In this document: one piece after another, positions 725-61,987 of the stretch
How positions within the stretch are numbered: position 1 is the first letter of the stretch
How the letters are laid out: each line of letters starts with the position of its first letter
Source of the DNA: a virus
Lineage: Duplodnaviria; Caudoviricetes
Strand: one strand, 5' to 3'
DNA: 64,000 nucleotides
IMG/VR virus record: IMGVR_UViG_3300004481_002026
Coordinates: 2,870-66,869 of that record
The notes under the pieces: generated by a model
The model's input: the letters and a program-made list of their open reading frames with translations, nothing else
What the model was told of the DNA's origin: nothing
The model's database searches: none
Translations under genes and position numbers: made by a program

Positions 725-1011
725 TGTGCGCCACCGTGCTTCGCAAGGAGGGCAAGCGCTGCGTCTGCGTCATCCTCATAGCCTTCCTCCCGCAACGCCT
801 TCTCAGCGGCGCGCAGACCAGCAAGTAGTTCGTCTTGGGTGGAGCGCAAATTGTCCACCTCCGAGGCAAGGGCGAAATGAAGATTGTCTGGCGGTGAGTT
901 GTCAAACGCAGGCCAATGCTCGCCGTATCGCAGTGCCGTCGTCGTCCCATCGGCGCGCATTACGTAGGTGTACTTCCCGTCGAATACGCTAACGTTCAGG
1001 ATGTCGCTCAC
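721..1011 (-). CDS. Hypothetical phage protein
   Basis: 96 aa ORF, translationally coupled to both neighbours. Confidence 0.7.
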   Translation of the reverse strand: MSDILNVSVFDGKYTYVMRADGTTTALRYGEHWPAFDNSPPDNLHFALASEVDNLRSTQDELLAGLRAAEKALREEGYEDDADAALALLAKHGGAQ

Positions 1012-1250
1012 GCCGCCACCCTCCGCTCGTTCCGGCTTCCGGAACCGTTATCATTCGAAGGCCGTCTTCTCTCGTTACGGGCAGCCGTCAAAGCGCCGGG
1101 GATTTGCAGCGTCTGGCCGGTTTGCCTGGATACGTCCCGCGCTACCTTCTCCAAAGCGGCGCGCTTAGCGGGATTGGCCGATGCGATAGACATAATGGCG
1201 CCAGCGGTCGTGCCCTGATCAATGAATTCTTGTGCGGTGAGGATTGTCAT
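1008..1250 (-). CDS. Hypothetical protein with ssrA-like C-terminus (SNDN...RVAA)
   Basis: AGGAGAC SD; coupled to the next gene. Confidence 0.7.
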   Translation of the reverse strand: MTILTAQEFIDQGTTAGAIMSIASANPAKRAALEKVARDVSRQTGQTLQIPGALTAARNERRRPSNDNGSGSRNERRVAA

Positions 1251-1279
1251 GGTTGTCTCCTGTGGTGGTGAGGGGTGGG

Positions 1280-1747
1280 TTAGATGGCGAGCGCTGAGAG
1301 AACTTTGGCTTGGTAGTAATATTCGGCTTCGCGCTGTAAACTCTGGACCAGTTCGGCTGGCGCGTCGGCGTGGCGGTCATAGCGCTTGCCATCCGGTCCG
1401 CGATGCCCCGCAACGGAAATGCTAATTCTTCCCCATGGGGTCAGTGCTCGCCAGCCGGGAATGTCGTCATTCGATCCGCCCCAGTCTTCCGCCCACTCAA
1501 GAGGCTTTACCGATGGTGTGAAAATTGAGGAAATGATCCGATCAAACTCAAGTTGCGCTGCGTCCTGTGCCTCTTCGCGTGAAACAAATGGCTTGCCGTT
1601 GTATGTCCAATTGTCGTCATGAAGATTGACGTAGAACTGGCGATGGGCGGGAGTTGCTGCGCTATAGGTCTCGGGGTCGTCGTACTCGTCTTTTGGTGTT
1701 CTGGTCCAAACAAGTGGACTAGTTGTGCCTACCGTCTTGTCGGTCAA
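1280..1747 (-). CDS. Hypothetical phage protein (TTG start, MTDKTV...)
   Basis: AAGGAGAC SD before TTG at 1747; directly downstream of the promoter at 1780-1809. Confidence 0.7.
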   Translation of the reverse strand: MTDKTVGTTSPLVWTRTPKDEYDDPETYSAATPAHRQFYVNLHDDNWTYNGKPFVSREEAQDAAQLEFDRIISSIFTPSVKPLEWAEDWGGSNDDIPGWRALTPWGRISISVAGHRGPDGKRYDRHADAPAELVQSLQREAEYYYQAKVLSALAI

Positions 1748-1779
1748 AATCGTCTCCTTCGTGGTGAATTGGTAATTCC

Positions 1780-1809
1780 GACAATAGTTTATATTTACAA
1801 AATTGTCAA
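1780..1809 (-). promoter_or_regulatory. Promoter/operator cassette copy 1 (TTGACA-N17-TATTGT)
   Basis: Reverse complement of ttgacaattttgtaaatataaactattgtc; near-identical to five other copies. Confidence 0.85.
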
Positions 1810-1812
1810 GGT

Positions 1813-1980
1813 TTAGACCCTTGCCTCCACCGCCATCTGCCGCTCGACGGCAACAGCCTGGCAGGCTGTGCCGAACAACAGCAGAAGCGCGCCGACCGCG
1901 ATAATCGCGTACATGCTGTTGCGGGCCGCTAGGGTGACGTAGGTGTCGTTGAAAGGGCGGGTGGCTGTTCTGGCCGTCAT
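1813..1980 (-). CDS. Small membrane protein (55 aa)
   Basis: AAGGAG SD; single hydrophobic stretch YAIIAVGALLLLFG. Confidence 0.6.
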   Translation of the reverse strand: MTARTATRPFNDTYVTLAARNSMYAIIAVGALLLLFGTACQAVAVERQMAVEARV

Positions 1981-3226: not shown

Positions 3227-3612
3227 TGAGTCACAAGAGCAAAAAGACGAACGAACAGCCAAAACGGCCACCTACCTCCCAAGCGTACCGAGTAAACCAA
3301 GCGTACCAGTAAAAACAAAATGAACGCCCCGAAATGCGGGCCAACTACAGGAGACGACGACATGCAGGAAGAACAAGCAGCGTCCAGAAGAGCGGACTTT
3401 CCTTTGGGAATGCCACCGTGACGATCAACAAGGACGCTGCCCGCTGAAATGCGGGCGGCGGGTTCCTCCAGCCAGTCCGCTCGATTGCGAGCCGATCGGG
3501 GTGGAGACACCAAGCGCCATGACGCTTTTTTTCGCGGCGCGGCGTGACGCGACACATCGTAACGTCAAGCTATTCAACGACCTTTCACCACAACCACATC
3601 GAGGAGACTAAA

Positions 3613-4209
3613 ATGGATTTTTCCGTAGCCACCGTAACACTCAGAAGCTTTTCCCCTTACAGCCAGAGCAAGCAGCATGACGAACCGTCGCTGAAGGGCG
3701 AGGGCAAAGGAGACTACGACAAGCGCACCTGGAAGGCCAAGGCGCATTTCACCAAGGAAGGCACGCTTGGCATTCCGGCGGCATCCATGACGCAGGCCAT
3801 TGCCGAAGCCGCCAAATACTCCAAGAAACAAATCCCCGGCCAGGGCAAGGCCACATGGACCGCCAAATTCAAGAGCGGTATCATGCTCGTCGATAGCTAC
3901 ATTGACACCGGCATAACACTCAAGGACAGCGACTTCGTCGACATCATGTGCGACGCTCAGGGTAAGACCGGATCAGCCGTCAGCAGCCGCGTACCGCGCC
4001 GCTTTCCGCAGGTTCCCGAATGGTCGGCCACATTCCAAGTATGGATACTCGACCCCATTATCACCGAAGAAATCTTCCGCGAGATGGTCGAGCTTGCCGG
4101 TATGTTCATCGGTATCGGCCGCTGGCGGCCCGTCATGAACGGCGGAATGAACGGTCGCTTCATCATCGACAAGCTTCAATGGGAAGATAACCGCAAGTTT
4201 GCGGCGTAA
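3613..4209 (+). CDS. Stand-alone Cas7/RAMP-like RNA-binding protein (198 aa)
   Basis: RAMP-like motifs GIPAASMTQAI, RVPRRFP..PEWSATF and a C-terminal Gly-rich loop AGMFIGIGRWRP..GG.NGRF; GAGGAG SD; no other cas genes nearby. Called by motif recognition, not by search. Confidence 0.75.
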   Translation: MDFSVATVTLRSFSPYSQSKQHDEPSLKGEGKGDYDKRTWKAKAHFTKEGTLGIPAASMTQAIAEAAKYSKKQIPGQGKATWTAKFKSGIMLVDSYIDTGITLKDSDFVDIMCDAQGKTGSAVSSRVPRRFPQVPEWSATFQVWILDPIITEEIFREMVELAGMFIGIGRWRPVMNGGMNGRFIIDKLQWEDNRKFAA

Positions 4210-6361: not shown

Positions 6362-6393
6362 TTGACAATAATGTAAATATAAACTATTGTCAA
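6362..6393. promoter_or_regulatory. Promoter/operator cassette copy 3; reads TTGACA-N17-TATTGT on both strands
   Basis: ttgacaataatgtaaatataaactattgtcaa, between the divergent repressor 2 and the gene at 6447. Confidence 0.85.
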
Positions 6394-6446
6394 ATTCCAA
6401 ATCGCGCACCGGGCGATTTATTTTTTACCACATGGAGGAGACTAAA

Positions 6447-7034
6447 ATGGCACGACTCAACAAAGTGGAACGCGAGAAATACGGTATTTCCATCCATCGC
6501 ATGTCGGAGCTTTCCGGACTGTCAGTGGACAGGGTTAAGGAAATCGAGGCCACACAACTCAGCCTTATCGGTCAAGGCGCGCCAAGGGATAGGCTTGCCA
6601 CTCCGGCTGACAGCGCACGAATGCTCGAGGTTGTCGATACCATCAAGAAAGAACAAGACGCAGTAGTCGAGGCGATGATGGGACGGCTTGTCGCCACTGG
6701 CGTCGACATTTCCCTGAAGCTAGTGGGCGTTTCATCGACGGTTCAGCCGATGTACCACGCTGAATTGTCGCAGACCACGCTTTCGGGTGGATCCCTCGTG
6801 TCGTCGGCCCGTGGACGGTCGCCGCTGTCGGCAATGACCGCGTGCATCGACACCATGCGGGAAGTAGTCGGCAATGTGTCCGGTCTGCTTCCGCTTCCTC
6901 GCGCCGAAGCTCCAGATGTTATGCACCTCGCCAATGCCGTCATGGACACCCTCGAAAAACGCCCAAGCAACTACGATATCGGCAAGGCCATTGAGGGTGC
7001 AATTCTCGCCGAACGCCAGCGACACGCCGCCTAA
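6447..7034 (+). CDS. Cro-like HTH protein with C-terminal extension
   Basis: SIHRMSELSGLSVDRVKEIE HTH; first gene divergent from repressor 2; GGAGGAG SD. Confidence 0.7.
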   Translation: MARLNKVEREKYGISIHRMSELSGLSVDRVKEIEATQLSLIGQGAPRDRLATPADSARMLEVVDTIKKEQDAVVEAMMGRLVATGVDISLKLVGVSSTVQPMYHAELSQTTLSGGSLVSSARGRSPLSAMTACIDTMREVVGNVSGLLPLPRAEAPDVMHLANAVMDTLEKRPSNYDIGKAIEGAILAERQRHAA

Positions 7035-7061: not shown

Positions 7062-7409
7062 ATGACAATCATCACAGATTCCGCATCTGCGGACCTGCAT
7101 GCCCGAAGAGCGGACGGCTCATCCTACCGCAAGATCGCCGAGGCGGTCGGCATGAAGACCATGACCGTCTACCAGCATCTGCGCCGCCGAGGCATCCTCA
7201 CCGCAATGCCGGTTCGCCTTGAAAGCGCCAACGACAACAACCCTGAGCGCGTCACGCGCATGTCGCCCCACAACGGCGGATGCTCCACTCTGTCTGGTAT
7301 GATGCCTGTGTCGGTCAAGCGCCTAGCAGCCAACGACAACACGCCGGACGCCGAGTCCGAACTGGCTGGCCGCGCCGTTAATGAGTACGCGATGCGGGTG
7401 GCGGCATGA
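7062..7409 (+). CDS. HTH domain protein (two ANDN motifs, ends RVAA)
   Basis: SYRKIAEAVGMKTMTVYQHL HTH; GAGGAGAC SD. Confidence 0.75.
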   Translation: MTIITDSASADLHARRADGSSYRKIAEAVGMKTMTVYQHLRRRGILTAMPVRLESANDNNPERVTRMSPHNGGCSTLSGMMPVSVKRLAANDNTPDAESELAGRAVNEYAMRVAA

Positions 7410-7714
7410 CCTCTATCCCTGAAGACATCTGCGACTGCCAGCACTTCGACGAAGGAGACTGGGTGGTCAGCCGCCTGAACGGCTCGGTATTCGGCATCGT
7501 TGTCGGCGAGTCCAGCTTCGGCCGGTTCTACGAGGTCCAACTCGTCGACACGCTGGAAATCAAGCCATTCCACGGCGTCACATTGCGCCACATGGAATTC
7601 ATGGGCGAGCCGCCGACAGAGGCCAGCATGCCTGTTGGCGACAACGTTGTGCATGTGGATTTCACAAAGCGCCGTCCGATGACGGTGGATAGCAACACGG
7701 AAGGAGCGGCGTGA
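7406..7714 (+). CDS. Hypothetical phage protein
   Basis: ATGA coupled; SH3-like FDEGDWVVSR start. Confidence 0.7.
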   Translation: MTSIPEDICDCQHFDEGDWVVSRLNGSVFGIVVGESSFGRFYEVQLVDTLEIKPFHGVTLRHMEFMGEPPTEASMPVGDNVVHVDFTKRRPMTVDSNTEGAA

Positions 7715-8538
7715 TGGGAAAGTTTAAAGTGGGCGATCGGGTTCGCCTTAAGCGGTATTCTTATGGCGGCGAAAAGGGTTTTGAAGCCATCGTCAGCAAA
7801 GTTGAGTTTTTCGGCTATGCTAAGACGTGGTGGTATTGGCTGGGTGAGAAGCGAGCATTCTCAAGCGACGGCAGTTTCCCAGAGACAGATCTCGAACTCG
7901 TCTCGCCCGTTTGGGTGCCGAAGGTAGGCGATCGGGTTCGGTCTTTGGTTGACTGGTGCGACGTGAAGAAAGGAAATGATTACTCTGTCGAGGAGATCAG
8001 CGGAACAGGCGTATGGGTCAAGGTGACTGGCGCGTACAACCACTTTATGGACTTCAAGGAGATCGAACCACCCACCGTCACCATCGAACCCGGCAAGTTC
8101 TACAAGACCCGCGACGGGCGCAAGGTGGGGCCGGTTGTTGTGGCGCAGGGTAACGGTGAGCCGTGGCCGTGGAAGCTAGAGAGCGGCACGCACTACTACA
8201 AGGAAGACGGTCATTCTTGCCCCGGTTATGCTCATCGCCACGACGATAAGGACGACCTCATCGCCGAATGGCAGGAGCCCGCCGCCACTGCTGCCGTCGT
8301 CCCGTCAGCGCAGGTTGACGCGCTGGCCGAAGAGTATGGGCCGGCTGCGACGCCGCATCCTTGGAAGCGGTATGCCGTCACAGAGCCAGTTGAAGTTGCA
8401 GCCAGCAGCGACAACAGCCGTGACCTGACAATCACCATTTCGACGGACGCCGCACAGACCAACGAAGCGCTCGACGAGATCATCACCAAGCTGAAGAAAA
8501 TCCGAAAGCTTCAGCGCGAAGTCGGTATCGCCGCCTAA
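7711..8538 (+). CDS. Hypothetical modular phage protein (repeated KVGDRVR modules)
   Basis: 275 aa ORF in the operon with an internal repeat. Confidence 0.75.
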   Translation: MMGKFKVGDRVRLKRYSYGGEKGFEAIVSKVEFFGYAKTWWYWLGEKRAFSSDGSFPETDLELVSPVWVPKVGDRVRSLVDWCDVKKGNDYSVEEISGTGVWVKVTGAYNHFMDFKEIEPPTVTIEPGKFYKTRDGRKVGPVVVAQGNGEPWPWKLESGTHYYKEDGHSCPGYAHRHDDKDDLIAEWQEPAATAAVVPSAQVDALAEEYGPAATPHPWKRYAVTEPVEVAASSDNSRDLTITISTDAAQTNEALDEIITKLKKIRKLQREVGIAA

Positions 8539-8605
8539 CCACCCCACCACCCTCACCACAACAAACCCTCCTGCTTCGGCAGGAGGGCAGAGGAGGCTTT
8601 TGCAA

Positions 8606-8794
8606 ATGAGCAGACAGACAGAACGTGCAGATGCACGCCGCCAAGCCAAAATCGACAAGGCAAACGAACGCAAGCCAGGTAGTTATCCGGCCAGCCGCGA
8701 CGTGCCGTTCCTCGCAACCGGCAAGACCTACCCGCGCAGCAGCAAGCGTGAAGCCGCTCGCCATGCTGGCGTCACCCTGCAGGCCGCAGCATGA
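8606..8794 (+). CDS. Hypothetical basic protein
   Basis: AGGAGG SD; coupled to the next gene. Confidence 0.65.
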   Translation: MSRQTERADARRQAKIDKANERKPGSYPASRDVPFLATGKTYPRSSKREAARHAGVTLQAAA

Positions 8795-9216: not shown

Positions 9217-10032
9217 ATGGCAATTAACTGGACACACGGGCTCAAACGGACGAACGACCCGTTCCCGCCCATCATCGTACTTTACGGCGGTGAAGGTGAC
9301 GGCAAGACATCCTTCGGCGGAGACTGGCCGAACCCTCTGTACGTACAGACCGGCAAGCGAGAGCGGCCTGCCGCTGGATATGGCGACAAGCTTCTCTCGT
9401 GGGGCCTGACAGACAGCTACGAGGAGTTCAACGACCAGATCGACTTCATGCTGAACGCCGACCACGACCGCCTGACGTTCGTTGTCGATACGCTCGACTG
9501 CCTGGAGACGATCGTCATTGCCGAAGCGTGCCGCAGGCAAGGCTGGAGCGACATCACAGACGGCAAGTTCTCTGACCCGAAGAATGCTACGGCGCAGGTG
9601 TGGCGGGAAGTCATCGACAAGTTCGTCGATCTCAAGGAAGCGGGTTACGCCGTCATCCTGATCGCTCACGTCAAGACAAAGACCGAGCCGGGAGTGACCA
9701 CCGACAGTTACCCGCGTTATCGGCTCAACCTGCGCATGGATGACGACGCCAATTCGCTTGCCCACGCCGCCGATATCGTCGGCTTCGTTCACCAGCGTGT
9801 TTCCATCCAAAAAGAGTCCGGCGGCTTCCACAAGGACAACGTCAAGAAGCGCGGCGAAGGCAGCGGTGAGCGTCTGATCGGCGTCGAGAACCGCCCCGGC
9901 TACGTCGCCAAGAACAAATACGGCCTGAAGGGCGCACTGTCCTACAAGCAAGGCGAGGGCTTTAAGATGTTCGAGCCGCACGTCATCGCGCCGTATGGCC
10001 GCCCGCCGTCTGAAGAAGACGAGGCGGCATAA
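9217..10032 (+). CDS. AAA-family ATPase, Sak4-like single-strand annealing recombinase
   Basis: Walker A LYGGEGDGKT, Walker B FVVDTLD, ILIAH and DIVGF motifs; precedes an SSB-like gene. Confidence 0.8.
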   Translation: MAINWTHGLKRTNDPFPPIIVLYGGEGDGKTSFGGDWPNPLYVQTGKRERPAAGYGDKLLSWGLTDSYEEFNDQIDFMLNADHDRLTFVVDTLDCLETIVIAEACRRQGWSDITDGKFSDPKNATAQVWREVIDKFVDLKEAGYAVILIAHVKTKTEPGVTTDSYPRYRLNLRMDDDANSLAHAADIVGFVHQRVSIQKESGGFHKDNVKKRGEGSGERLIGVENRPGYVAKNKYGLKGALSYKQGEGFKMFEPHVIAPYGRPPSEEDEAA

Positions 10033-10077: not shown

Positions 10078-10713
10078 ATGGCTAGACTTGAATTTGAATA
10101 CAAGGTCGAAGAAGAAAATACCGAAAAGCAGGGCGGCAGCGGCGGCATCCTGCCCCACATGTACGCGAAGCTTGAGGCGGAGGCGATGGAAATCCTGCCG
10201 ACCGAGGATAACAAGGGCCACCGCCTGAATATCACCTTCTCAGTCATTGGCCCTGAGCAGTTCGACCGCCGCAAGTTCTGGGCCGACTGGACTATCTCCC
10301 ACCCTGATACCTACAACTACGGCCGGTACAAGTACGGCAAGCCGATGTTTGACCGGTTCATGCGGGCCGCAGGCATCGACCTTGAACTGTTCGAGCAAGA
10401 CCCTGATACCGATCACCTCATCCTTAAGTCGTTCGTTGCCGAGGTCGGCATTCAGATCGGCAGCCCCGTACCCGGCAAGCCAGGCGAGTTCTACAAGGAC
10501 AAAAACCAGATCGACCGCTTCTTCTATCCTGATGATAATGCCAAGGAGCCGATTCCAGAACTCGGCATCATTGGCGACGGCACACAGGGCAAGAAGCGCA
10601 ACGTTGCCGGATCTTCCACTCCCGCCAACGACAACCGCCCTTCCACACCAGCCGCTCGCGCTGCTGCGCCGGCCGAGAAGGGCAAGTCTCCTTGGGCTAA
10701 GAAGGCGGCGTGA
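10078..10713 (+). CDS. DUF669-like phage single-stranded DNA-binding protein
   Basis: Position after Sak4; RKFW...KNQI motifs; low-complexity tail ending PWAKKAA. Confidence 0.7.
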   Translation: MARLEFEYKVEEENTEKQGGSGGILPHMYAKLEAEAMEILPTEDNKGHRLNITFSVIGPEQFDRRKFWADWTISHPDTYNYGRYKYGKPMFDRFMRAAGIDLELFEQDPDTDHLILKSFVAEVGIQIGSPVPGKPGEFYKDKNQIDRFFYPDDNAKEPIPELGIIGDGTQGKKRNVAGSSTPANDNRPSTPAARAAAPAEKGKSPWAKKAA

Positions 10714-10842: not shown

Positions 10843-11022
10843 ATGGAATACGATGTTGAAAAGGCGACTGAATATCTGGTGACTGGCGGGCTTGGCGAAG
10901 TTATCGGCCTCGCCGATGGCGCGCGCTTTATGCAATCGCCAAAGGTGCAAATGGACACGGATATGGCCATGGCCCTCTGCCTGCTTGCCGACGAGGCGCT
11001 GAAGGCGCGAGTGGCAGTCTGA
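10843..11022 (+). CDS. Hypothetical protein
   Basis: GAGGAGAC SD; coupled to the next ORF. Confidence 0.6.
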   Translation: MEYDVEKATEYLVTGGLGEVIGLADGARFMQSPKVQMDTDMAMALCLLADEALKARVAV

Positions 11023-11426
11023 TGGGTGACAAGAATTTCAAATGGTGGATTGCCGACAGCGAGGACGCCGACTTCTATCAAGGTCCATATGCCGATCGCA
11101 ACGAGGCAATTCAGGTCGGAACCTGCGACTTCGACGGCGAGCCGTTCTACATCGTCGAGGCAGACAAGAGCGTCCTGACTTCCAACATCGACGGCGAGTC
11201 ATATGCCGAGCGCATCATGGATGACCTCTGCGAAAACAACGAAGAGTGCTTCGGTGAGGACGGCCCTGACGACCCATGGGCGGAGTACACCTTGCCGCAC
11301 AAGGCACTTGGCGACCTGATCGAGAAAGCCGTCGATGAATGGCTCAAGGTCATGCCCGCGAAGACGTGGTCTTTCGGCACGCAGCGAAACGGCGAGACGA
11401 TTACGCCGACCGCAGAAGCAGCCTAA
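11022..11426 (+). CDS. Hypothetical acidic phage protein
   Basis: 134 aa ORF in the operon. Confidence 0.7.
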   Translation: MGDKNFKWWIADSEDADFYQGPYADRNEAIQVGTCDFDGEPFYIVEADKSVLTSNIDGESYAERIMDDLCENNEECFGEDGPDDPWAEYTLPHKALGDLIEKAVDEWLKVMPAKTWSFGTQRNGETITPTAEAA

Positions 11427-11474: not shown

Positions 11475-12527
11475 ATGAAGCTAACCATTCCTAAATCTGA
11501 TTTGTCCAGACTGATAACCGGCGTCGGCAAAGTCGTGGAATCCAGAAACACGATCCCTATCCTTTCCAACGTCCTGCTCACCGCGACAGCCGACACATTG
11601 ACGGTACGCGGCACGGATCTGGATATCGAGGCTACGGCCTCCGTTGCCGCGTCCTGCTCGCCGGGAGCAATCTGCGTCGACGCCAAGCTGTTCGCGGGCA
11701 TTGTTGCCAAGGCTGGCGGCGATATTTCCCTGCAAACGGAAGGCGACAAGCTGATCGTCAAGTCGGGCCGCTCTCGCTTTTCGTTGCAGACGCTACCCGC
11801 CGAAGACTTCCCGACAATGGCAGGCGGAACCTTCGACGCCACATTCGATATCGATCTGGCCGCGCTGTTTGCGCCGGTGGCGTTCGCTATCTCGACCGAA
11901 GAGACCCGCTATTATCTAAATGGCGTGTTCTTCCGTGGCTATGATGGCAAGACAGTCGCGGTCGCAACGGACGGCCACCGTCTCGGCCGCCACTTTGGCG
12001 CCGCCACGGCCGACTTCGAAGGCGTCATCGTTCCGCGCAAAACTGTATCGCTGCTCCCGAAAGGCACGGTATTGGTCTCGGTCTCGACCAACCGCATCCA
12101 GATTTCCAGCGCCGACTTCGTCATGACTTCCAAGCTAATCGACGGCACGTTCCCCGATTATGAGCGCGTCATTCCCAAGGCCAACGACAAGATCGTCACG
12201 GTTGATCGCGATGAAATGATGAAGGCTGCCGACCGTGTTGCGGCTGTCTCGTCGGAGCGTGGCAAGGCTGTAAAACTCAGCATCGCGCCGGGTGGCATTG
12301 CGCTTTCGGCATCGTCTGAAGTCGGACAGGCCGAAGACGAAGTTGCCGCCGAATACAGCGGCGAGCCTGCGGTTATTGGCTTTAACGCAGGCTACCTGCG
12401 CGACATCATGACTGTGCTCCCGTCTGGCTCGGTCACGCTGGCCATTGCGGATGGCGGCTCGCCTGGACTCATTACGTCGGCTGGTTTTGAGGGGCTGACG
12501 CTCGTTGCAATGCCGATGAGGGTCTGA
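11475..12527 (+). CDS. dnaN: DNA polymerase III beta sliding clamp (phage-encoded)
   Basis: Hallmark motifs TIPILSNVLL, TDLDIE, TEETRYYLNGV, VATDGHRL, SKLIDGTFPDYERVIP, IGFNAGYL, MPMRV. Confidence 0.95.
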   Translation: MKLTIPKSDLSRLITGVGKVVESRNTIPILSNVLLTATADTLTVRGTDLDIEATASVAASCSPGAICVDAKLFAGIVAKAGGDISLQTEGDKLIVKSGRSRFSLQTLPAEDFPTMAGGTFDATFDIDLAALFAPVAFAISTEETRYYLNGVFFRGYDGKTVAVATDGHRLGRHFGAATADFEGVIVPRKTVSLLPKGTVLVSVSTNRIQISSADFVMTSKLIDGTFPDYERVIPKANDKIVTVDRDEMMKAADRVAAVSSERGKAVKLSIAPGGIALSASSEVGQAEDEVAAEYSGEPAVIGFNAGYLRDIMTVLPSGSVTLAIADGGSPGLITSAGFEGLTLVAMPMRV

Positions 12528-14228: not shown

Positions 14229-15997
14229 AACTCCGCGGCTATCAAAGAGACAGCATCGACGCACTCTACTCCTACTGGCAAAATGGCGGCGGCAACGGCC
14301 TTATCGTGCTCCCAACCGGCGCCGGGAAGGCGCTCGTCATTGCCAAAATCATTGAGGAATTGCTGGCTGACTATCCGGCCATGCGCATCGTCAACGTCAC
14401 GCATTCGGCCAGCCTCGTCGAGCAGAACTTCAAGGAGTTCATTGGCTTATCGCCTTTTGCTCCTGCAGGAATTTACTCTGCCAGCCTCAACCGGCGGGAC
14501 GCGCGCGCGCAGGTGCTGTTCTGCGGCATTCAGTCGGTATGGAACAAGGTCGACCAGCTTGGCGACATTGACCTCATCCTCGTCGACGAGGCCCACGCCA
14601 TCAGCCGCAATGCCGACACTCAGTACGGCAAGTTCTTTGCGGACGTGCGCGCACGCAATCCGGATAGTCGCGTATCTGGCACCACCGCGACCGACTATCG
14701 TATGGATTCCGGCCGCCTGACGGATGGCGAGGACGAGGAAGAACTGGTCGCCGTGGACGAGGAAGGCAAGGCCGTGCTGGTCAAGCCGAAGCGCGTCAAG
14801 TTGTTCGACGATGTGGTCTATGAAATCGGCATCGCCGAGCTGATGGAGCAGGGCTATCTCACGCGCCTCACCAGCCAGAAGACCACCAGCAAGATTGACC
14901 TGAAGGGCCTGCACACACGCGGCGGCGAGTACGTCCCCGGCGAGGTGTCCGCGGCGGCAGAGAAGATCATCGAAGAGGCTGTGGCGGAAGACATGGTTAT
15001 GTCGGAAGGCCGCCGTGCTGCGCTGTTCTTCTCGACCAGCAAGGAGAACGCCAACCACATCGCCGAGGCCATCCGTCGGCACGGGCGGACCTGCGCCGTC
15101 CTGACCAGCGACAACGCGCACCAGACCAAGGAGATTTTCGAGGGCTTCCGGTCTGGCAAATACTGGGCGATTTCGTCTGTCTCGATGATCACTACCGGCA
15201 CGAACTTTCCGTTTGTGGATTTTATTTCGCTCATCTTGTCTACCAAGAGCGCTGGCAAACTCGTCCAGATTTTGGGTCGTGGAACGCGCAACTATCCCGG
15301 CAAGGATGATTGCCTCATCGCCGACCATGGCAAGAATCTGGCGTACCACGGGCCGATTGATCAGATCCGACCGAAAGACCCTGGCAGCGGTGACGGCGAG
15401 CAGCCGAAGAAGGTTTGCCCAACGGAAGAGACGGGTGGGAAGCAGGACGAGAATGGCAACTGGGGGTGCGGCGAGGCTATCCCTATCTCGTTCATGAAGT
15501 GCCATTGCTGCGGCTACATCTTCCCGCCGAATGAGGAAGAGAAGATCACGGCTGAGGCTGCGGCCGCTCCGGTGCTTTCGACGGAAAAGCCTTGGTATCC
15601 GGTATCGCTGCGTACTTTCCGTCATCATCCTGGAAAACTAGACGACAAGGGCAAGCAGAAGCCAGACTCCGTCAAGGTCACCTTCATGACGGGTATGAAG
15701 GCGGTCAATCAATGGATGTGCTGCGAGCATCCGTCTGGCTCATTCCCGAAGGCGCAGGCCGAACGTTGGTGGATCCGTCACAACGGCAAGCGTCCCGCGC
15801 CAAAGAGCGTCGTCGAGTGGCTGGAGCGTGCCAACGAACTGGATGAGACTGCGGAGATCCAGTTGGATTATAGCCGCAACCCGAAGTACCCCGACGTCAA
15901 AGACTTCCGCGTCGGCCCCGCCAACGACAATCAACCAGCGCCGGCGAACGATAACAGCAAGTGGGCGCGGGACATGGACGATTTTATACCGTTTTAG
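14222..15997 (+). CDS. SF2 DEAD/DEAH-box helicase with Zn ribbon (RadD/YejH-like)
   Basis: LPTGAGKA, DEAH, TAT, TGTNFP, QILGRGTR; CP..C, C..C..CGY. Confidence 0.9.
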   Translation: MLELRGYQRDSIDALYSYWQNGGGNGLIVLPTGAGKALVIAKIIEELLADYPAMRIVNVTHSASLVEQNFKEFIGLSPFAPAGIYSASLNRRDARAQVLFCGIQSVWNKVDQLGDIDLILVDEAHAISRNADTQYGKFFADVRARNPDSRVSGTTATDYRMDSGRLTDGEDEEELVAVDEEGKAVLVKPKRVKLFDDVVYEIGIAELMEQGYLTRLTSQKTTSKIDLKGLHTRGGEYVPGEVSAAAEKIIEEAVAEDMVMSEGRRAALFFSTSKENANHIAEAIRRHGRTCAVLTSDNAHQTKEIFEGFRSGKYWAISSVSMITTGTNFPFVDFISLILSTKSAGKLVQILGRGTRNYPGKDDCLIADHGKNLAYHGPIDQIRPKDPGSGDGEQPKKVCPTEETGGKQDENGNWGCGEAIPISFMKCHCCGYIFPPNEEEKITAEAAAAPVLSTEKPWYPVSLRTFRHHPGKLDDKGKQKPDSVKVTFMTGMKAVNQWMCCEHPSGSFPKAQAERWWIRHNGKRPAPKSVVEWLERANELDETAEIQLDYSRNPKYPDVKDFRVGPANDNQPAPANDNSKWARDMDDFIPF

Positions 15998-17205: not shown

Positions 17206-17984
17206 CCGCCACCGAGTTCAACCCAATGGCCACGCGGGCTATCGAGGTCGCCGAGTTCCCGAAAGATCACAACCAGCCAGCAAACGATAACGTCGAGCCA
17301 GAAGTCTTCACCGAGATCAACGACCTCTTCGACGAAGCCAAGAACTTCGCAGACGGCGAGCCCATTGCTGACGAAGCCACGGCAGCCGCAATCACGAAGC
17401 TCTATGACGGCCTGCATGCTGCGGGCAAGCGGGCCGATGAACTGCGTATCGGCGAAAAGAAGCCACACGACGATGCGGCCGCAGCAGTGCAGGCCAAATA
17501 CAATCCCTTCATCCAGCCGAAGAAGGGCAAGGTAGACCTTGGCAAGTCGGCTTTGTCCGATCTTCTATCGGTCTGGCGCGCAGCCAAGGCCAAAGCAGCC
17601 GCCGCAGAAGCCGCCCTAGCAGCCGAGAAGGCGGCGGAGGCCACCCGCATAGCCACAGCGGCGATACAGGCGTCCAGCGGCAACCTGGCGGCAAGGGTGG
17701 AGGCCGAAGAACTACTCGCCGACGCCAAGATGTTGGAGAAACAAGCGGCCCGTGCTGACCGGCAGGCGGCGACGGGGACGGGGCTGCGCACGACGTGGGT
17801 GGCGACGCCCGACACCAAGCCGGATAGCGCCGAGCTGGCGCTCGATTGGGCCTACACCAAAGACCCCCGCCGCTTTGCCGAACTCGTCCAGCAGATGGCT
17901 GACGAGTCCACCCGTACCGGCACGCGCACAATCCCAGGATACGTCATCACCGAAACCAAAGTCGCCGCGGCGGGGAGATCATAA
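17202..17984 (+). CDS. Coiled-coil phage protein (Gam/Gp157-like, uncertain)
   Basis: Long Ala-rich helices; C-terminal IPGYVITE. Confidence 0.7.
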   Translation: MTATEFNPMATRAIEVAEFPKDHNQPANDNVEPEVFTEINDLFDEAKNFADGEPIADEATAAAITKLYDGLHAAGKRADELRIGEKKPHDDAAAAVQAKYNPFIQPKKGKVDLGKSALSDLLSVWRAAKAKAAAAEAALAAEKAAEATRIATAAIQASSGNLAARVEAEELLADAKMLEKQAARADRQAATGTGLRTTWVATPDTKPDSAELALDWAYTKDPRRFAELVQQMADESTRTGTRTIPGYVITETKVAAAGRS

Positions 17985-18415: not shown

Positions 18416-18723
18416 TGGCAAAGCAAAGCGAACTGTCGATGGATGCCAGAGTCTTGGTCTCCTGCTTCTTCGGCTTCGGCCCGAAGACTTCCCTCAAGAT
18501 CGGCGGGAAGGGCGCGAAAAGCGTTCTCTCCGACCGCGCCGCCGTTGCCATGAAAGAGTTGATCGCGGGTGGCTACGTCACGGCCAGCGAATTCAACCAG
18601 TACGGCAAGATGGAATACGTCGGGACCGACAAGTGCCAAGCAGCCAAACTCAGCATGGCGGCCATGGAGGAGCACGGTCGCTGGTCAGCAACCATGCCGA
18701 ATCCTGAGACGGTGGCAGCATGA
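18412..18723 (+). CDS. Hypothetical phage protein
   Basis: Coupled ORF ending TVAA. Confidence 0.65.
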   Translation: MMAKQSELSMDARVLVSCFFGFGPKTSLKIGGKGAKSVLSDRAAVAMKELIAGGYVTASEFNQYGKMEYVGTDKCQAAKLSMAAMEEHGRWSATMPNPETVAA

Positions 18724-19139
18724 CCACCGTCCACGACAAGACCGGCCGTGAGATCATGGTGGGCGATGTTCTCAAGGTGTTCCACTTCACGGCAGCCGTG
18801 CGCCGGAAGAAACACTACATGTATAAGCAGGTGGTGGCCTACGACAACTTCCGAGACGGCACGCCGTACCTGAAGGTCAGCCACCTCGACATGGCGGACG
18901 ATGGCTACACGCTCATCTGCGACGGCAAGCATTTGCCGGATTACGAAATCGTCCAGTCCGTCGGCGTCGAGCGCGAGGACGAATACATGCCTATCGCTAC
19001 GGCGCGCATCGCTTGGGCAATCGGGGCCAGCACCAAGGACGAGCCGGTTGTTGCGCGTGCCCAGCCAGCAGCCCCGCCCACCAACGATCTTTTCTCAGGG
19101 GCAGCCAACGATAACGGCAAATTGGAGGTGGCGGCGTGA
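18720..19139 (+). CDS. Hypothetical phage protein (YopX-like start) ending AANDNGKLEVAA
   Basis: DKTGREIMVGDVLK start; coupled on both sides. Confidence 0.7.
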   Translation: MTTVHDKTGREIMVGDVLKVFHFTAAVRRKKHYMYKQVVAYDNFRDGTPYLKVSHLDMADDGYTLICDGKHLPDYEIVQSVGVEREDEYMPIATARIAWAIGASTKDEPVVARAQPAAPPTNDLFSGAANDNGKLEVAA

Positions 19140-28532: not shown

Positions 28533-28609
28533 TGCGCGGTAGAGAAGCACGGTATCTCGCCAGCCTCATAAGCTGGAGAACGGCGGTTCAAATCCGTCCT
28601 GCGCAACCA
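28533..28609 (+). tRNA. tRNA-Met (CAT), initiator-like D-arm
   Basis: Acceptor TGCGCGG/CTGCGCA, anticodon arm CCAGC-CTCATAA-GCTGG, T-loop TTCAAAT, encoded CCA. Confidence 0.9.
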
Positions 28610-28615
28610 ACTAAC

Positions 28616-28688: not shown

Positions 28689-28706
28689 TATACGCCTACC
28701 ATATAC

Positions 28707-42100: not shown

Positions 42101-42197
42101 GCAGGGTGTTGCGCAGGCTCTTACAGAGAAGAACGACAACGACCGTCGCGGTGGTTGGGGAACACAGCAACAGCGGTACACGTCGCAGAAGGGCTAA
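39180..42197 (+). CDS. Tape measure protein with embedded M15-family peptidoglycan peptidase domain
   Basis: Tape-measure domain ([19 protein letters not shown]); [10 protein letters not shown]...[12 protein letters not shown]...WGGDW...DAMHFE. Confidence 0.93.
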
Positions 42198-58076: not shown

Positions 58077-59322
58077 CGAACAGATCCAAGAAGCAGTCGA
58101 CGCACTGGCCGAACACGGCACGCAGTCCGCTGCAGCCTCGGCGCTGGGGCTGGCTAGATCGAGCTTTCAGGGCCGCTTAAATAGAGCGGCGGAGCGGGGG
58201 CTGCTGGGGACGAAGCCGGTGCTTCCTGGGTTTCGCTTGACAAAGACGACAGCCGTAACCAACGAGAACGGCGACGTCGTGCGCGAGTTCGTCCAGCAGC
58301 GGTCAGAAGCCGGCGTTGAGTTCGAGCTGATGGCTGGGCATACCATCAAGGGTGTCTCTGCCCTCGTCGATCCATCCGGCCGTATTATGCAGCAATGGAT
58401 TAAGACGCGCGAACAGCCCTCGGCTGTCGACATTGCCGAGACGCTGAAGGAAGCCTTCAAGGACTACGAACACGGAGCAATCCCACAGCCTGCGCCTGCC
58501 GTGTCAGACCTTGACCTTCTGACACTCATCCCCTGCAACGACTGGCACGTGAATCTTCTGACATGGGAACGGGAAACCGGCACGAACTGGGATCTCAAGA
58601 TCGCCGAGCGCGTCATCGGGCAGGGCATTGAGGATGCAATCTCACGGACGGCCAAGGCCGGACATGCCATCGTCTTGGGTGGAGGTGACCTGCTCCACGC
58701 GGATAATAACGAAAGCCGCACGGCGCGCAGCAACAACGTGCTCGATACAGACGGCAGGCACCAGAAGGGTCTTGAGGTTGCCGGCCGTCTTATGGTCAGA
58801 ACGATCGATGCTGCTCTTCGCAATAACCGGGCTGTGACAGTCCGCATTCTTCAGGGCAACCACGATGAACACACGTCGGTCGCCATCGGCTATTTCCTGC
58901 TGGCTTGGTATCGCAACGAGCCTCGCGTCTTCGTTGACGTGGATGCCTCTTTGTTCTTCTGGCATCGCTTCGGAGCGGTCATGCTTGGTGCGACGCACGG
59001 GCATACCGTCAAGCTCAAGGACATGGCCAGCATCATGGCTCATCGGCGGGCCGAAGATTGGGGCGCAACGAAGTTCAGATATGTCCATGGGTTTCATATT
59101 CACCACGCCAGCAAGTTCCAGACGGAAGGCAACGGCGTGATTATGGAATCGCATCAGGCGCCAATTCCGCAAGATGCCTGGCACTTCGGCGCGGGCTTCC
59201 TTTCGGGCCGCTCCGTCCAGACCGTGACCTACCATCGGCTGTTCGGCGAGATTTCCCGCGTTCGGGTGGCCATGCTGGACGCGGCTGCGAATGACAATCA
59301 AAAGATGGGGGTGGCGGCGTGA
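58054..59322 (+). CDS. HTH plus calcineurin-like metallophosphoesterase
   Basis: N-terminal HTH (GTQSAAASALGLARSS); NDWH, GGDLLH, GNHD, HGH, GFHIHH. Confidence 0.85.
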   Translation: MPQPPLTNEQIQEAVDALAEHGTQSAAASALGLARSSFQGRLNRAAERGLLGTKPVLPGFRLTKTTAVTNENGDVVREFVQQRSEAGVEFELMAGHTIKGVSALVDPSGRIMQQWIKTREQPSAVDIAETLKEAFKDYEHGAIPQPAPAVSDLDLLTLIPCNDWHVNLLTWERETGTNWDLKIAERVIGQGIEDAISRTAKAGHAIVLGGGDLLHADNNESRTARSNNVLDTDGRHQKGLEVAGRLMVRTIDAALRNNRAVTVRILQGNHDEHTSVAIGYFLLAWYRNEPRVFVDVDASLFFWHRFGAVMLGATHGHTVKLKDMASIMAHRRAEDWGATKFRYVHGFHIHHASKFQTEGNGVIMESHQAPIPQDAWHFGAGFLSGRSVQTVTYHRLFGEISRVRVAMLDAAANDNQKMGVAA

Positions 59323-59477
59323 AGTATCTGACAAATGGATGGATTTTGTGGCTCTCCGCCTCGGCGCTCGCCGGAATCGGAGCCGCTTGTGAACTGAGCA
59401 TTGGCCACGGCTTTACCACGGCCGCCGTAGGTCTCGGCATTGCATCAATGGCTTCTGTCATCATTGCCACCACCTAA
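59319..59477 (+). CDS. Small membrane protein (52 aa)
   Basis: Hand-translated; GTGA overlap; two hydrophobic segments. Confidence 0.45.
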   Translation: MKYLTNGWILWLSASALAGIGAACELSIGHGFTTAAVGLGIASMASVIIATT

Positions 59478-59523
59478 GCCCCACCAAGGCAGCCTAACCA
59501 CCACACCACATGAGGAGACGAAA

Positions 59524-59745
59524 ATGGACTACGAAACAGAGATCAAAAAGCTTGCGATAGAGGATGGCGACATCATCGTTATCCGATCGCAGAAGAGAAT
59601 CAGCACGGAGCAGGCAAGGCACCTCCACAACGGAATTAGTGGAATTCTGCGCGATATCGGCAAAGAGGTGAAGGCAATCGTCTTGGACGACGGCCTGACC
59701 CTTGAGGTTCTGAAGACGTCCAACCTCAAGGATGTCGCAGCATGA
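59524..59745 (+). CDS. Hypothetical protein
   Basis: GAGGAGAC SD; ends DVAA. Confidence 0.7.
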   Translation: MDYETEIKKLAIEDGDIIVIRSQKRISTEQARHLHNGISGILRDIGKEVKAIVLDDGLTLEVLKTSNLKDVAA

Positions 59746-60473
59746 GCGTTATACCGGAATCCCAAAACAGTATAACGACCGGCCCGCTCGACAAGTACGT
59801 GGCAGCGAATGATAACGCGCCTGTCGCGGAGGTCGTCAACCTTACCGGCGGCCAGTACATCGGCCTGACGCGCGGCGAGCGTGACGCGGCCGACAAGCTG
59901 CGTAACCAGCATCGCCACCGAACCGGCGACTTCATGCAAACCTACACAGGACGCGCCTTCTGGCCTCTGGATCCGCGCGCCGACGAAGTCTTCATCGAGG
60001 ACATAGCCCATAGCCTGTCCTTGCAATGCAGATTTGCAGGCCACTGCGTCAAGTTCTATTCGGTGGCGGAACACTCTGTTCTGATTGCCCGCTGGCTGCT
60101 TGACCGCTACGGCCCGCAAATCGCCCTCCACGGCCTTCTCCACGATGCGCCTGAAGCATACGTCGTCGACGTGCCGCGGCCGCTGAAGCCATTCCTTGCC
60201 AACTACAAGGGGATTGAAGCAGGAGTTATGGCGGCGATCTCGGCCCGTTACGGACTGGCCGCCGACATGCCGGACGCAGTGCACGAAGCCGACGGACGAA
60301 TCATCTGCGACGAACTTGTCAACCTGTTGCCGATGTTCTGGCACGGCAAGCATGACGACCCGCTCGGCGTCACCTTGGAATACTGGTCGCCGGAAGAGGC
60401 GGAAGTCGAGTTCCTGGCTGCGTTCGATGCTCTGACGGGGATTGTTGGTGATGAGGGGAGGATGGCGGCTTGA
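59742..60473 (+). CDS. HD-domain 5'-deoxynucleotidase (YfbR-like)
   Basis: IEDIAHSLS..CRFAGH, YSVAEHS, LLHDAPEAYVVD. Confidence 0.88.
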   Translation: MSVIPESQNSITTGPLDKYVAANDNAPVAEVVNLTGGQYIGLTRGERDAADKLRNQHRHRTGDFMQTYTGRAFWPLDPRADEVFIEDIAHSLSLQCRFAGHCVKFYSVAEHSVLIARWLLDRYGPQIALHGLLHDAPEAYVVDVPRPLKPFLANYKGIEAGVMAAISARYGLAADMPDAVHEADGRIICDELVNLLPMFWHGKHDDPLGVTLEYWSPEEAEVEFLAAFDALTGIVGDEGRMAA

Positions 60474-60700
60474 TGACTCACCGACAGCGGGAGGCTTTAT
60501 CGTGGCTGCGATGGCGGCACGTTAAGTTCCCCACACACGCCAACTTCGCCACCGTCCATCTTGGGGTGGATACGACTGCGCTTCTGCGCAAGCTCGTTCC
60601 CCTTGGTCTCGTGTCGGCCACGAAAGGCGGAAGTGGTTCACGACAGTTCTTTGCCATCACCGATGCGGGTCTCGCCGCACTGCAGGAGGCCGCGGCATGA
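60473..60700 (+). CDS. Small winged-helix-like protein
   Basis: LLRKLVPLGLV...FAITDAG. Confidence 0.6.
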   Translation: MTHRQREALSWLRWRHVKFPTHANFATVHLGVDTTALLRKLVPLGLVSATKGGSGSRQFFAITDAGLAALQEAAA

Positions 60701-60984
60701 AGCGCGGAGACAAAGTCGTCTGCATCAACGACAAGGTGCCGCTTGCTGGAGGCGCCGTGGTTAAGGACGCGAACCTGACGGAAGGCGAAGTCTATGTCGT
60801 GCGCTGGTACGGCAAGGAGGTGCATTACACGCTCGGCACCTACTACGGCGTCAAGCTGGAGGGCATCGACAGCAAGTTCGGCGATGCGTGGGCCACGCCA
60901 GACTGCGCCTATGACGCCAACCGCTTCCGCCCGGTCGTCGAGCCGAAGATCGAAACCAAGATCAAACTGGAGGAGAAGGTATGA
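60697..60984 (+). CDS. Hypothetical phage protein
   Basis: MKRGDKVVCIND start; coupled. Confidence 0.7.
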   Translation: MKRGDKVVCINDKVPLAGGAVVKDANLTEGEVYVVRWYGKEVHYTLGTYYGVKLEGIDSKFGDAWATPDCAYDANRFRPVVEPKIETKIKLEEKV

Positions 60985-61130
60985 TGTGGCCATGGAAAAA
61001 TAGCGAGGCTGCATTCTCGCCTATGCAAATGCAGTCGGCGTGGGAGGCGGCTCAACGAGCGGCCCGCCAGAGATTTGAAGATTACGCCGCCGAATACAGG
61101 AAGCGCGCAGCACTGGAGGAGACACAATGA
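60981..61130 (+). CDS. Small hypothetical protein (49 aa)
   Basis: Hand-translated; ATGA overlaps at both ends. Confidence 0.5.
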   Translation: MMWPWKNSEAAFSPMQMQSAWEAAQRAARQRFEDYAAEYRKRAALEETQ

Positions 61131-61987
61131 ACAACACCGACACATGGAGCCCATGGAATACCGAAGGCTGCCTGACGGACCTTCCGTCCAATTCCCAAGT
61201 TGCTGCGCTCGGCGCGGCAATCGGGAAGACAGATTACGAGGCATTGGGACAGGCGGTGATGGACAGGTTCCCCAAGACGCTTGCGGCGCTGGCCGAATCA
61301 GAGCGCCGGCTCCCCGACCTCCCAGACGAAGCCTACCCAGACGAAAGCATTCTTCTTCCGGCCGGTATTATGCCGATCGTCTATCCGCGCTCTGCGGCCA
61401 ATGACAACAAGCCTCCGATGATTGGAATCACTGGCAAGCGGAACGTCGGCAAATCGACCGTCGCCACGCTTCTGGAAAGCAAGTTCGGATTCTCTCGCGC
61501 ACACGCTTTCGATGGCGGGAAGCTGGCGGCGGAAACCTACTTCCGGCACGTCACGGGCAGCGCCTTGGAGGCGCAACAGATGGTCTACGGCTATCTCAAA
61601 GACATTCCATCGCCACACCTGCCTGGCAACGTTGCGCCGCGTTTCTTCCTCGAGAAGTTCGGTCACTTCATGGGCGTTGACATGGGCGTCGAATGGACAC
61701 TGGCGATGGAGATCAATCGTCTGCGGCGCGAATCGCCTAAGTCGCCAATCGTTGTCGAATCGCTGGTGTATGAAGCACCGTGGTTCCAGGCTGCCGGCGG
61801 CTATGTCCTGCGGCTGGAGCGTCCGGATCATGACGGGCCGGAAGGCATTGCGAGCGACAGCGTGCAAGCCACCATCAAGGCTGATGCAGTAATCTCGGCG
61901 CGGTCAGTCGAGGAGCTGGAGGACAAGGCACTCCGCCTTATCGATAGTCTCGTCGGAGAACAGGAGGTGCGGCGGTGGTCGGCTTGA
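61127..61987 (+). CDS. Deoxynucleoside monophosphate kinase (phage dNMP kinase family) with N-terminal extension
   Basis: IGITGKRNVGKST P-loop, PRFFLEKFG, LRLER..H..SD. Confidence 0.85.
   Translation: MNNTDTWSPWNTEGCLTDLPSNSQVAALGAAIGKTDYEALGQAVMDRFPKTLAALAESERRLPDLPDEAYPDESILLPAGIMPIVYPRSAANDNKPPMIGITGKRNVGKSTVATLLESKFGFSRAHAFDGGKLAAETYFRHVTGSALEAQQMVYGYLKDIPSPHLPGNVAPRFFLEKFGHFMGVDMGVEWTLAMEINRLRRESPKSPIVVESLVYEAPWFQAAGGYVLRLERPDHDGPEGIASDSVQATIKADAVISARSVEELEDKALRLIDSLVGEQEVRRWSA

Follow-up and report, generated by a model that had tools for sequence, protein, structure and literature searches.

What is a peptide that opens the degradation tag of rhizobia doing in the proteins of one of their phages? 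The question is raised by a stretch of 64,000 nucleotides (positions 2,870 to 66,869 of IMG/VR record IMGVR_UViG_3300004481_002026; Duplodnaviria, Caudoviricetes), called the window below, which covers 64 kb of a 66.9-kb record classed by IMG/VR as a provirus. Its proteins repeatedly contain the tetrapeptide Ala-Asn-Asp-Asn (ANDN), which resembles the head of the ssrA tag encoded by transfer-messenger RNA (tmRNA). In Escherichia coli, SspB binds the first seven residues of that tag and tethers the cargo to ClpX (PMC9963277), and among ClpXP substrates of Caulobacter a C-terminal Ala-Ala is a hallmark whose change to Asp-Asp stabilizes the protein (PMC5324124). A first-pass annotation, made by a model from the DNA letters, had proposed that the phage hard-codes docking sites for this adaptor, either to time turnover of early and replication proteins by ClpXP or to titrate SspB, and had suggested comparing motif frequency with shuffled controls and with host proteins. 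Judged from sequence, ANDN appears to be a selected short linear peptide, with the consensus [Ala/Pro]-Ala-Asn-Asp-Asn, in disordered tails and linkers of non-virion proteins, and it is accompanied by a second tag-like feature at their C-termini.

ANDN is over-represented and confined to reading frames

Gene calls from a codon-usage model gave 82 proteins, whose starts are approximate and whose stops and C-termini are independent of the starts. Combining these calls with a six-frame scan, we located 16 exact copies of ANDN in frame in 13 genes, all on the plus strand (Table 1), and none in the other five frames of the window. The same 16 sites in 13 probable proteins had been listed by the first-pass annotation, and the two variants that it named, SNDN and DNDN (25858), are also present. 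Composition predicts 0.154 copies in the 17,467 amino acids, and 5000 within-protein shuffles gave a mean of 0.157 and a maximum of 3. The annotation's observation is upheld and proves stronger than it had described. Ranked by over-representation among tetrapeptides, ANDN came first and AAND second (11 copies versus 0.49 expected).

The 16 copies are encoded by 11 distinct 12-mers, with synonymous codons used at close to their genome-wide values. Selection therefore falls on the peptide and not on a DNA repeat, as had been argued earlier from synonymous variation; in the related phage 16-3, copies switch strand along with their genes, which likewise places the signal in the peptide. The preceding residue is Ala in 11 copies, Pro in four, and Ser in one. 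Eleven copies thus agree with the rhizobial tag over its opening five residues (AANDN), the remaining five agree over ANDN, and tag positions 6 and 7 are not copied.

Most copies occupy the ends and joints of proteins, much as the annotation's phrase "linkers or tails" implied. Nine lie within 25 residues of the stop. Four fall in the first 40 residues, three of them (17280, 27013, and 59805) ahead of a conserved domain and one (7227) just past an N-terminal helix-turn-helix (HTH) domain. Two sit at domain boundaries, in the primase (between Prim-Pol and AAA_25) and in the deoxynucleoside monophosphate (dNMP) kinase (at the start of kinase homology), and only the tail-fiber copy lies inside a conserved structural region. 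The virion module of 23 proteins holds one ANDN, in the tail fiber, and one Ala-Ala end, in the portal; the remaining 59 proteins hold 15 and 18, respectively.

Ala-Ala ends accompany the motif

C-termini revealed a feature that the first-pass annotation had not mentioned. Nineteen of the 82 proteins end in Ala-Ala, compared to 1.06 expected, and 18 of these are non-virion proteins. In all, 27 proteins end in Ala, seven of the 19 Ala-Ala ends read VAA, and an Ala-Ala end is found on seven of the 13 ANDN carriers. These ends draw on all four Ala codons, and 11 of the 19 genes are free of overlap with the gene that follows, making a DNA-level cause unlikely. Such a cause was considered for the eight genes that overlap the next start by 4 nucleotides and was rejected, as the overlap fixes the last base only.

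Two C-termini had been described earlier as tag-like, and both have the form claimed for them. That of the 139-residue protein reads as a near-complete copy of the tag. In the SbcD-like exonuclease, the copy is appended to an otherwise conserved C-terminus: the orthologue in phage RHph_X2_26 (55% identity) stops exactly before the 12-residue tag copy of the window protein. The exonuclease of family phrog_10477 runs four residues beyond VAA (17970-17984), and its orthologues in 16-3 and two prophages stop at VAA; the Ala-Ala end is masked in the window phage by these four added residues.

Both features mark a phage lineage

Gene content and order place the provirus in a group with RHph_X2_25 and the Sinorhizobium phage 16-3, which is temperate. 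Searching a phage collection by megablast with the terminase-portal region returned no matches, and the relatives were found by protein search. Five prophages were found via the helicase in Rhizobiales genomes (Metarhizobium, two Rhizobium, Agrobacterium, and Brucella pituitosa), and both ANDN and the Ala-Ala ends occur in 16-3, RHph_X2_25, these five prophages, and 38 related viral contigs. Six-frame scans found 18 ANDN in 16-3, 12 in 49 kb of RHph_X2_25, and 6 to 11 per 21-kb prophage stretch. The 38 contigs contain 209 ANDN in 185,415 amino acids, versus about 1.6 expected at the composition of the window, and have Ala-Ala ends on 239 of their 818 proteins.

RHph_X2_26, a phage from the same host genus as RHph_X2_25, has no ANDN in 68.5 kb and Ala-Ala ends on 4 of 117 proteins, near background, and has several replication genes in common with the window at 37 to 55% identity. 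As this phage shows neither feature, the two travel together and mark a phage lineage rather than host composition. RHph_X2_26 infects Sinorhizobium americanum, carries homologues of the window's helicase, primase, exonuclease, and dNMP kinase, has no integrase or repressor annotated, and serves as a natural negative control.

Pooled over the relatives, ANDN is carried by 45 families unrelated in sequence. Among the larger carrier families, 17 of 22 are mixed, with ANDN in only some members, which indicates repeated gain and loss of the motif.

Spacing, context, and conservation of the motif

Across 250 distinct contexts from the group, the consensus is [A 51% / P 30%]-ANDN-[R, V, others]-[P 40%], and about two-thirds of the copies lie within 40 residues of the C-terminus. 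Fewer than seven residues separate ANDN from the C-terminus in only 4 of the 250; the onset at seven is sharp, and native tags have eight to nine. Sixty distinct tails have 4 to 12 residues after ANDN, of which 38 end in Ala-Ala and most others carry an Ala at the final or penultimate position; a few tails of relatives are nearly identical to the native tag. Where an Ala-Ala end accompanies ANDN, it stands at the spacing of a native tag or farther away. Ala-Ala ends were found on 99 of 216 ANDN carriers versus 203 of 862 noncarriers, an odds ratio of 2.7 that is inflated by shared ancestry. The residue ahead of Ala-Ala in relatives is, in order of frequency, V, then E, A, R, G, and L.

Alignments of two families show ANDN fixed, or almost so, amid a tail or linker that varies elsewhere. 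Among 13 orthologues of the HTH protein (37 to 96% identity), NDN and the final VAA are invariant. In an alignment of 28 sequences of the phrog_2300 family, whose relatives are annotated DUF669, identity falls to 29% and the tail is rich in insertions and deletions, with A183, N184, and N186 invariant and D185 conserved in at least 90%. We modeled both proteins with AlphaFold2 using the family alignments, and around ANDN each has low confidence and no structure. The predicted local distance difference test (pLDDT) scores of the phrog_2300 protein are 84 to 95 in the core and 41 to 54 in the tail (residues 171 to 211), where no secondary structure is predicted. The HTH protein has a confident HTH at residues 6 to 43, scores of 44 to 56 over residues 44 to 96 with both ANDN copies, and a low-confidence helix in the last 18 residues. 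Each family has one further conserved element: a near-invariant N-G-G-C-S-T..S-G..P-V block between ANDN and VAA in the HTH family (7272-7310), modeled with low confidence, and an invariant Pro-Trp (10690-10695) that follows ANDN and precedes the C-terminus by a few residues in the phrog_2300 family.

Other carriers show how far the position is kept. Helicase orthologues in 16-3, RHph_X2_25, and the five prophages have one or two copies or near-copies of ANDN in the same tail, and that of RHph_X2_26 has none. ANDN stands at the equivalent place (residue 350) in primase orthologues of the Agrobacterium prophage and RHph_X2_25, with none in the other orthologues, and the dNMP kinase site is kept in 16-3. 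The tail-fiber copy, the only one in a virion protein, is not conserved in the fibers of 16-3 or RHph_X2_25 and is possibly incidental.

The hosts make tags that begin with ANDN and encode SspB

A tRNA-Asn gene beside the integrase marks one prophage end, and 222 bases past it match a Rhizobiaceae-family genome over their full length at 84% identity; the host is therefore a member of the Rhizobiaceae that has no close representative in the sample. ARAGORN predicted four tag variants in the hosts of the five prophages, all starting with ANDN and ending with LAA. Tags have this start and end in nine of nine Rhizobiales or Rhizobiaceae genomes, confirming what the annotation had stated about rhizobial tags. 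The tag is ANDNYAEARLAA in all four genomes nearest the provirus flank, and the rhizobial forms found are (A)ANDNYAEARLAA or (A)ANDNNAKEYALAA. Because tmRNA itself donates an Ala ahead of the encoded tag, a finished rhizobial tag begins AANDN, the commonest form of the phage motif.

All five prophage hosts have SspB (PF04386), as do 113 of the 121 alphaproteobacteria sampled, a tally that takes in one unpublished genome (G045) used for no other result. The host proteins are orthologous to SspB-alpha: one of them closely matches the Agrobacterium structure 2NYS over its full length (E value of 5e-89) and Caulobacter SspB-alpha (2QAS/2QAZ) at about 1e-35. A C-terminal LDxFRKK peptide, which we take to be the ClpX-binding tail of SspB, is conserved across 34 alphaproteobacterial sequences. 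In four of five Rhizobiales genomes sspB follows the tmRNA gene on the same strand and starts within about 200 nucleotides of it, and in Brucella pituitosa the two genes are about 15 kb apart. Metarhizobium album has two adjacent matches to the tmRNA model (C2:81635-82362; 254 and 172 bits), each with an ANDN-coding stretch, which may reflect full or partial duplication of ssrA, as would be left by an element integrated there. The provirus itself has no SspB gene and no tmRNA gene, and its sole ClpP-like match is weak, below the cutoff, and in the gene for the head maturation protease.

Host genomes contain little ANDN of their own. The DNA pattern occurs 34 to 54 times per 5- to 7-Mb genome in all frames, and in two genomes inspected closely 13 of 34 and 19 of 38 matches lay in prophage stretches, with one match in each being the tmRNA gene. 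The coding pattern has a density of about 4 per Mb in hosts outside prophages versus 250 per Mb in the window. Equal frequency in host proteins, which the annotation had named as an outcome that would count against it, was thus not seen; hosts are about 60-fold less dense.

Clamp-like and other possible docking motifs share the tails

The phage encodes a beta sliding clamp with all three DnaN domains, and the DLF motifs beside ANDN are possible ligands for it. We defined a clamp motif of the QL[SD]LF type as Gln, two or three residues, and [SD]-L-F in a disordered terminus. Two window tails combine ANDN with a clamp-like DLF (19086-19136 and 19904-19966), in both cases lacking the Gln; the complete forms QLSLF, QADLF, and QPVADLF stand next to ANDN in relatives. 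Across the group, the last 30 residues hold 29 occurrences of [DS]LF versus 12 expected if evenly spread, and 22 distinct tails join ANDN, an Ala-Ala end, and a clamp-like peptide (QxxDLF; one exact QLSLF) in either order. Methylase tails of several architectures and unrelated lengths share the layout D[LM]F, ANDN, and AA. Such tails look like strings of several docking motifs. Directly after ANDN, the helicase C-terminus (15974-15994) has an acidic stretch and [IV]PF, resembling the tip of single-stranded DNA-binding protein (SSB), in all orthologues of the 16-3 group.

Genome organization

The early, replication, and recombination genes form a plus-strand block at roughly 3.5 to 28 kb of the window. 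The virion block runs from the terminase at 29.8 kb to tail fibers at about 50.8 kb and is followed by an endolysin at 52.7 kb, with a second non-virion block at 57 to 62 kb. No second attachment-site copy matching the tRNA-Asn end was found within the 66.9-kb record. Four other tRNA genes (Met, Thr, Pro, and Trp) cluster at 28533-28943, between the early block and the terminase, and an internal segment of the tape measure protein (39180-42197; residues ~576 to 827) matches endolysin/lysozyme PHROG families.

Table 1. Genes of the window that carry ANDN, a variant of it, or an Ala-Ala (AA) end, with the sliding clamp and integrase (aa, amino acids)
Feature	Coordinates	Strand	Details
80-aa protein	1008..1250	-	SNDN 1047-1058, 12 aa before VAA end
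Non-virion gene	3544-4209	+	AA end, without ANDN (C-terminus scan)
Non-virion gene	6387-7034	+	AA end, without ANDN (C-terminus scan)
HTH protein, 115 aa	7062..7409	+	ANDN 7227-7238 and 7329-7340; end VAA
Non-virion gene	7406-7714	+	AA end, without ANDN (C-terminus scan)
Non-virion gene	7711-8538	+	AA end, without ANDN (C-terminus scan)
Non-virion gene	8600-8794	+	AA end, without ANDN (C-terminus scan)
Sak4-like gene	9217-10032	+	AA end, without ANDN (C-terminus scan)
phrog_2300 protein, 211 aa	10078..10713	+	ANDN 10624-10635, 25 aa from end; ends AA
Non-virion gene	11022-11426	+	AA end, without ANDN (C-terminus scan)
Beta sliding clamp	11475..12527	+	All three DnaN domains
Superfamily 2 (SF2) helicase, 591 aa	14222..15997	+	Tandem ANDN 15920-15931 and 15944-15955; acidic ...IPF tip
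Exonuclease (phrog_10477), 260 aa	17202..17984	+	ANDN 17280-17291 near N-terminus
Non-virion gene	17984-18415	+	AA end, without ANDN (C-terminus scan)
Non-virion gene	18412-18723	+	AA end, without ANDN (C-terminus scan)
139-aa protein, family unassigned	18720..19139	+	DLF 19086-19094, AANDN (ANDN 19104-19115), 7 residues, VAA end
N6/N4 DNA methyltransferase, 277 aa	19136..19969	+	ANDN 19904-19915, DLF 19919-19927; ends AA
C5 DNA methyltransferase, 593 aa	20498..22279	+	ANDN 22226-22237, 13 aa from end; single Ala end
Primase-polymerase/helicase, 771 aa	22741..25056	+	ANDN 23869-23880 between Prim-Pol and AAA_25 (from residue 392); ends AA
phrog_36072 protein, 299 aa	26899..27798	+	ANDN 27013-27024 and 27754-27765 (second 10 aa from end)
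Tail fiber, 811 aa	44035..46470	+	ANDN 46252-46263; sole virion copy
SbcD-like repair exonuclease, 422 aa	58054..59322	+	Last 12 residues: AANDN (ANDN 59287-59298), 7 residues ending VAA
Non-virion gene	59440-59745	+	AA end, without ANDN (C-terminus scan)
dNMP phosphatase (HD family), 243 aa	59742..60473	+	ANDN 59805-59816 in N-terminal extension; ends AA
dNMP kinase, 286 aa	61127..61987	+	ANDN 61397-61408 at kinase-domain boundary
Integrase	62240-63622	-	Adjoins tRNA-Asn gene; region described spans 62240-64000

Discussion

The two conserved parts of the host tag recur, on segments that look flexible, in replication and other non-virion proteins, a class that a temperate phage might need to be short-lived or tightly restrained, which favors SspB-assisted ClpXP turnover as their purpose. 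With moderate confidence, we read ANDN and the Ala-Ala ends as encoded mimics of the ssrA tag, the simplest reader of the head being SspB and that of the end ClpX; SspB binding, delivery, degradation, and physiological purpose are all what we infer. The ANDN head would dock on the substrate groove of host SspB-alpha, the conserved C-terminal tail of SspB would tether the cargo to the ClpX N-domain, and ClpX would engage the Ala-Ala end or another weak degron brought near by the tether, after which ClpXP would degrade the carrier. The result would be short, host-protease-dependent lifetimes for the replication, recombination, methylation, and nucleotide metabolism proteins of a temperate phage, clearing leaky expression in lysogens and making early functions transient. 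Ends weaker than LAA would make degradation adaptor dependent, as with the engineered DAS tags discussed below. The earlier proposal of hard-coded adaptor sites gains partial support from the peptide-level signal, the presence of SspB-alpha in hosts, and the match to the tag. Of the two purposes it had left side by side, the widespread Ala-Ala ends and their co-occurrence with ANDN favor ClpXP turnover over pure titration of SspB.

Several observations weigh against turnover by tag mimicry. Pro replaces Ala before ANDN in 30% of copies and never does so in the real tag, and the residue after ANDN, Phe in the Caulobacter tag, is mostly Arg or Val followed by Pro in the phages. About one-third of copies lie more than 40 residues from the C-terminus, and 6 of the 13 window carriers have no Ala-Ala end, such that a model of a single "tag copy" misses some sites. 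Shared ancestry inflates the counts that pool the relatives, and constant breakdown of its replication enzymes is not obviously of benefit to a phage.

One possibility that takes up the distant copies is that the motifs and Ala-Ala ends mainly occupy SspB and ClpXP during lytic growth, with turnover of the carriers as a by-product, so that other proteins (tmRNA-tagged, host regulators, or phage) are stabilized or a host response is blunted. We consider such a decoy function unlikely, including its proposed effect on other proteins. Many abundant early proteins carry ANDN, several of them twice, one-third of the copies are far from any C-terminal degron, and phages do meddle with this adaptor, as a Pseudomonas phage with a phage-encoded SspB has been reported (PMC5587285). 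A single abundant decoy would be cheaper than motifs maintained in 45 families, however, and the strict minimum spacing to the C-terminus, together with the Ala-Ala association, points to productive engagement by ClpX. The joint invariance of VAA and ANDN in the small HTH regulator also looks like control of that protein. It is similarly improbable, in our view, that ANDN docks the carriers on a different hub and resembles the tag through convergence or as a secondary matter; candidates, each part of this same improbable scenario, include a phage protein, a phage or host sliding clamp, an SSB-like protein, ClpA, or SspB acting as a dimeric scaffold for replication and nucleotide enzymes. Such a hub would suit carriers that are nearly all DNA metabolism enzymes, in a phage with its own clamp, where ANDN often stands beside a clamp-like DLF or, in the helicase, the SSB-tip-like ...IPF, and it would accommodate the Pro that misfits the real tag. 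Yet identity to five residues of the tag head combined with enrichment of Ala-Ala ends would then be a double coincidence, the clamp motifs are hydrophobic and separately present in the same tails, and no candidate phage reader was identified.

Chance, composition, a DNA repeat, or scars of ssrA recombination or gene fusion could be imagined for a phage, as integration at or near ssrA is frequent and low-complexity Ala/Pro tails are common in high-GC phages. We regard a non-functional origin of this kind as extremely improbable. The excess over shuffles is 100-fold, the copies all lie in coding frames and follow gene orientation, including on the minus-strand genes of 16-3, they come in 11 DNA versions, and the motif is invariant within variable tails. 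RHph_X2_26, from the same host genus, lacks ANDN, and the provirus lies at a tRNA-Asn gene and not at ssrA. Chance, DNA repeats, and recombination scars were ruled out on these grounds by the shuffle, frame, codon, lineage, and conservation tests.

Returning to turnover by SspB and ClpXP, a more ambitious form of it, which we advance as speculative and rather doubtful, would make lineage-wide tag mimicry a saturable self-destruct code that sets a posttranslational lysis-lysogeny threshold and, interleaved with clamp motifs, a counterpart of the PIP (PCNA-interacting protein) degron. Non-virion proteins would stay near zero in lysogens and rise only once expression outran the capacity of SspB-ClpXP, and in DNA enzymes clamp binding and proteolysis would compete or cooperate.

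If turnover by encoded tag mimics is borne out, the group would clearly exemplify how a bacterial virus mimics a short linear motif, would supply alphaproteobacteria with naturally occurring SspB-dependent degrons that differ in strength, and would point to posttranslational control over prophage leakiness and early-gene timing. A sequence rule, that the motif follows the host's tag head, could also help assign hosts to phages. As 16-3 and Sinorhizobium meliloti form a tractable laboratory pair, the proposal is directly testable.

Adaptor-assisted ClpXP proteolysis and ssrA-like degrons are already textbook knowledge; what would be new here is encoded ssrA-tag mimicry across a phage proteome. 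In the literature that they covered, searches on the motif, on ssrA-like phage degrons, and on 16-3 with ClpX or tmRNA found no description of such mimicry. Compared to the native tag (AANDENYALAA in E. coli and the two rhizobial forms above), the phage proteins have the same AANDN head and Ala-Ala end, on a C-terminal tail that may likewise be unstructured, with similar spacing (8 to 9 residues in native tags versus 7 to 10), and two window proteins have head, end, and spacing together. Unlike the native tag, the phage copies are encoded in genes rather than added by trans-translation and omit the tag's middle part. The residue before Ala-Ala is mostly Val, Glu, or Ala and not Leu, ANDN is often preceded by Pro, and many copies stand inside the protein or near its N-terminus.

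Another parallel is RseA(1-108), which, from work by Flynn et al. in 2004 (cited in PMC5587285), is reportedly a natural non-ssrA cargo of E. coli SspB. This fragment, as proposed for the phage carriers, has an encoded SspB-binding peptide and a C-terminal VAA engaged by ClpX. It differs as one host protein with a degron exposed by cleavage and an SspB peptide unlike the tag head, whereas in the phages dozens of protein families copy the tag head itself. The classical phage substrates of ClpXP are lambda O, Mu transposase, and Mu repressor. These are also phage replication or transposition proteins placed under host ClpXP by terminal peptides, but their signals are individual ones and are not known to involve tag-head mimicry or an adaptor motif shared across a proteome. 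In eukaryotes, the PIP degron is a PCNA-bound PIP box read by CRL4-Cdt2, and the 22 phage-group tails that mix a QxxDLF/QLSLF clamp-like motif with degradation-tag elements recall it by analogy only.

Alphaproteobacterial degrons on CdnL, FtsZ, and CtrA (PMC5324124) resemble the phage ends in placing a free C-terminal AA or VA on regulators and on replication or division proteins. They differ in being single host proteins for which SspB use is not reported, whereas about one-quarter of the phage proteome ends in Ala-Ala and these ends are linked to ANDN. Engineered SspB-dependent DAS and DAS+4 tags are in use (PMC3064785) and keep the SspB-binding head while weakening the ClpX end, and the ends found in the phages (VAA, EAA, RVA, KCA, and others) resemble naturally occurring counterparts of them; the engineered tags, in contrast, are synthetic, single, and always C-terminal. 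Known ssrA-like degrons are features of single proteins, and not of a viral proteome that copies both parts of the tag in dozens of unrelated families.

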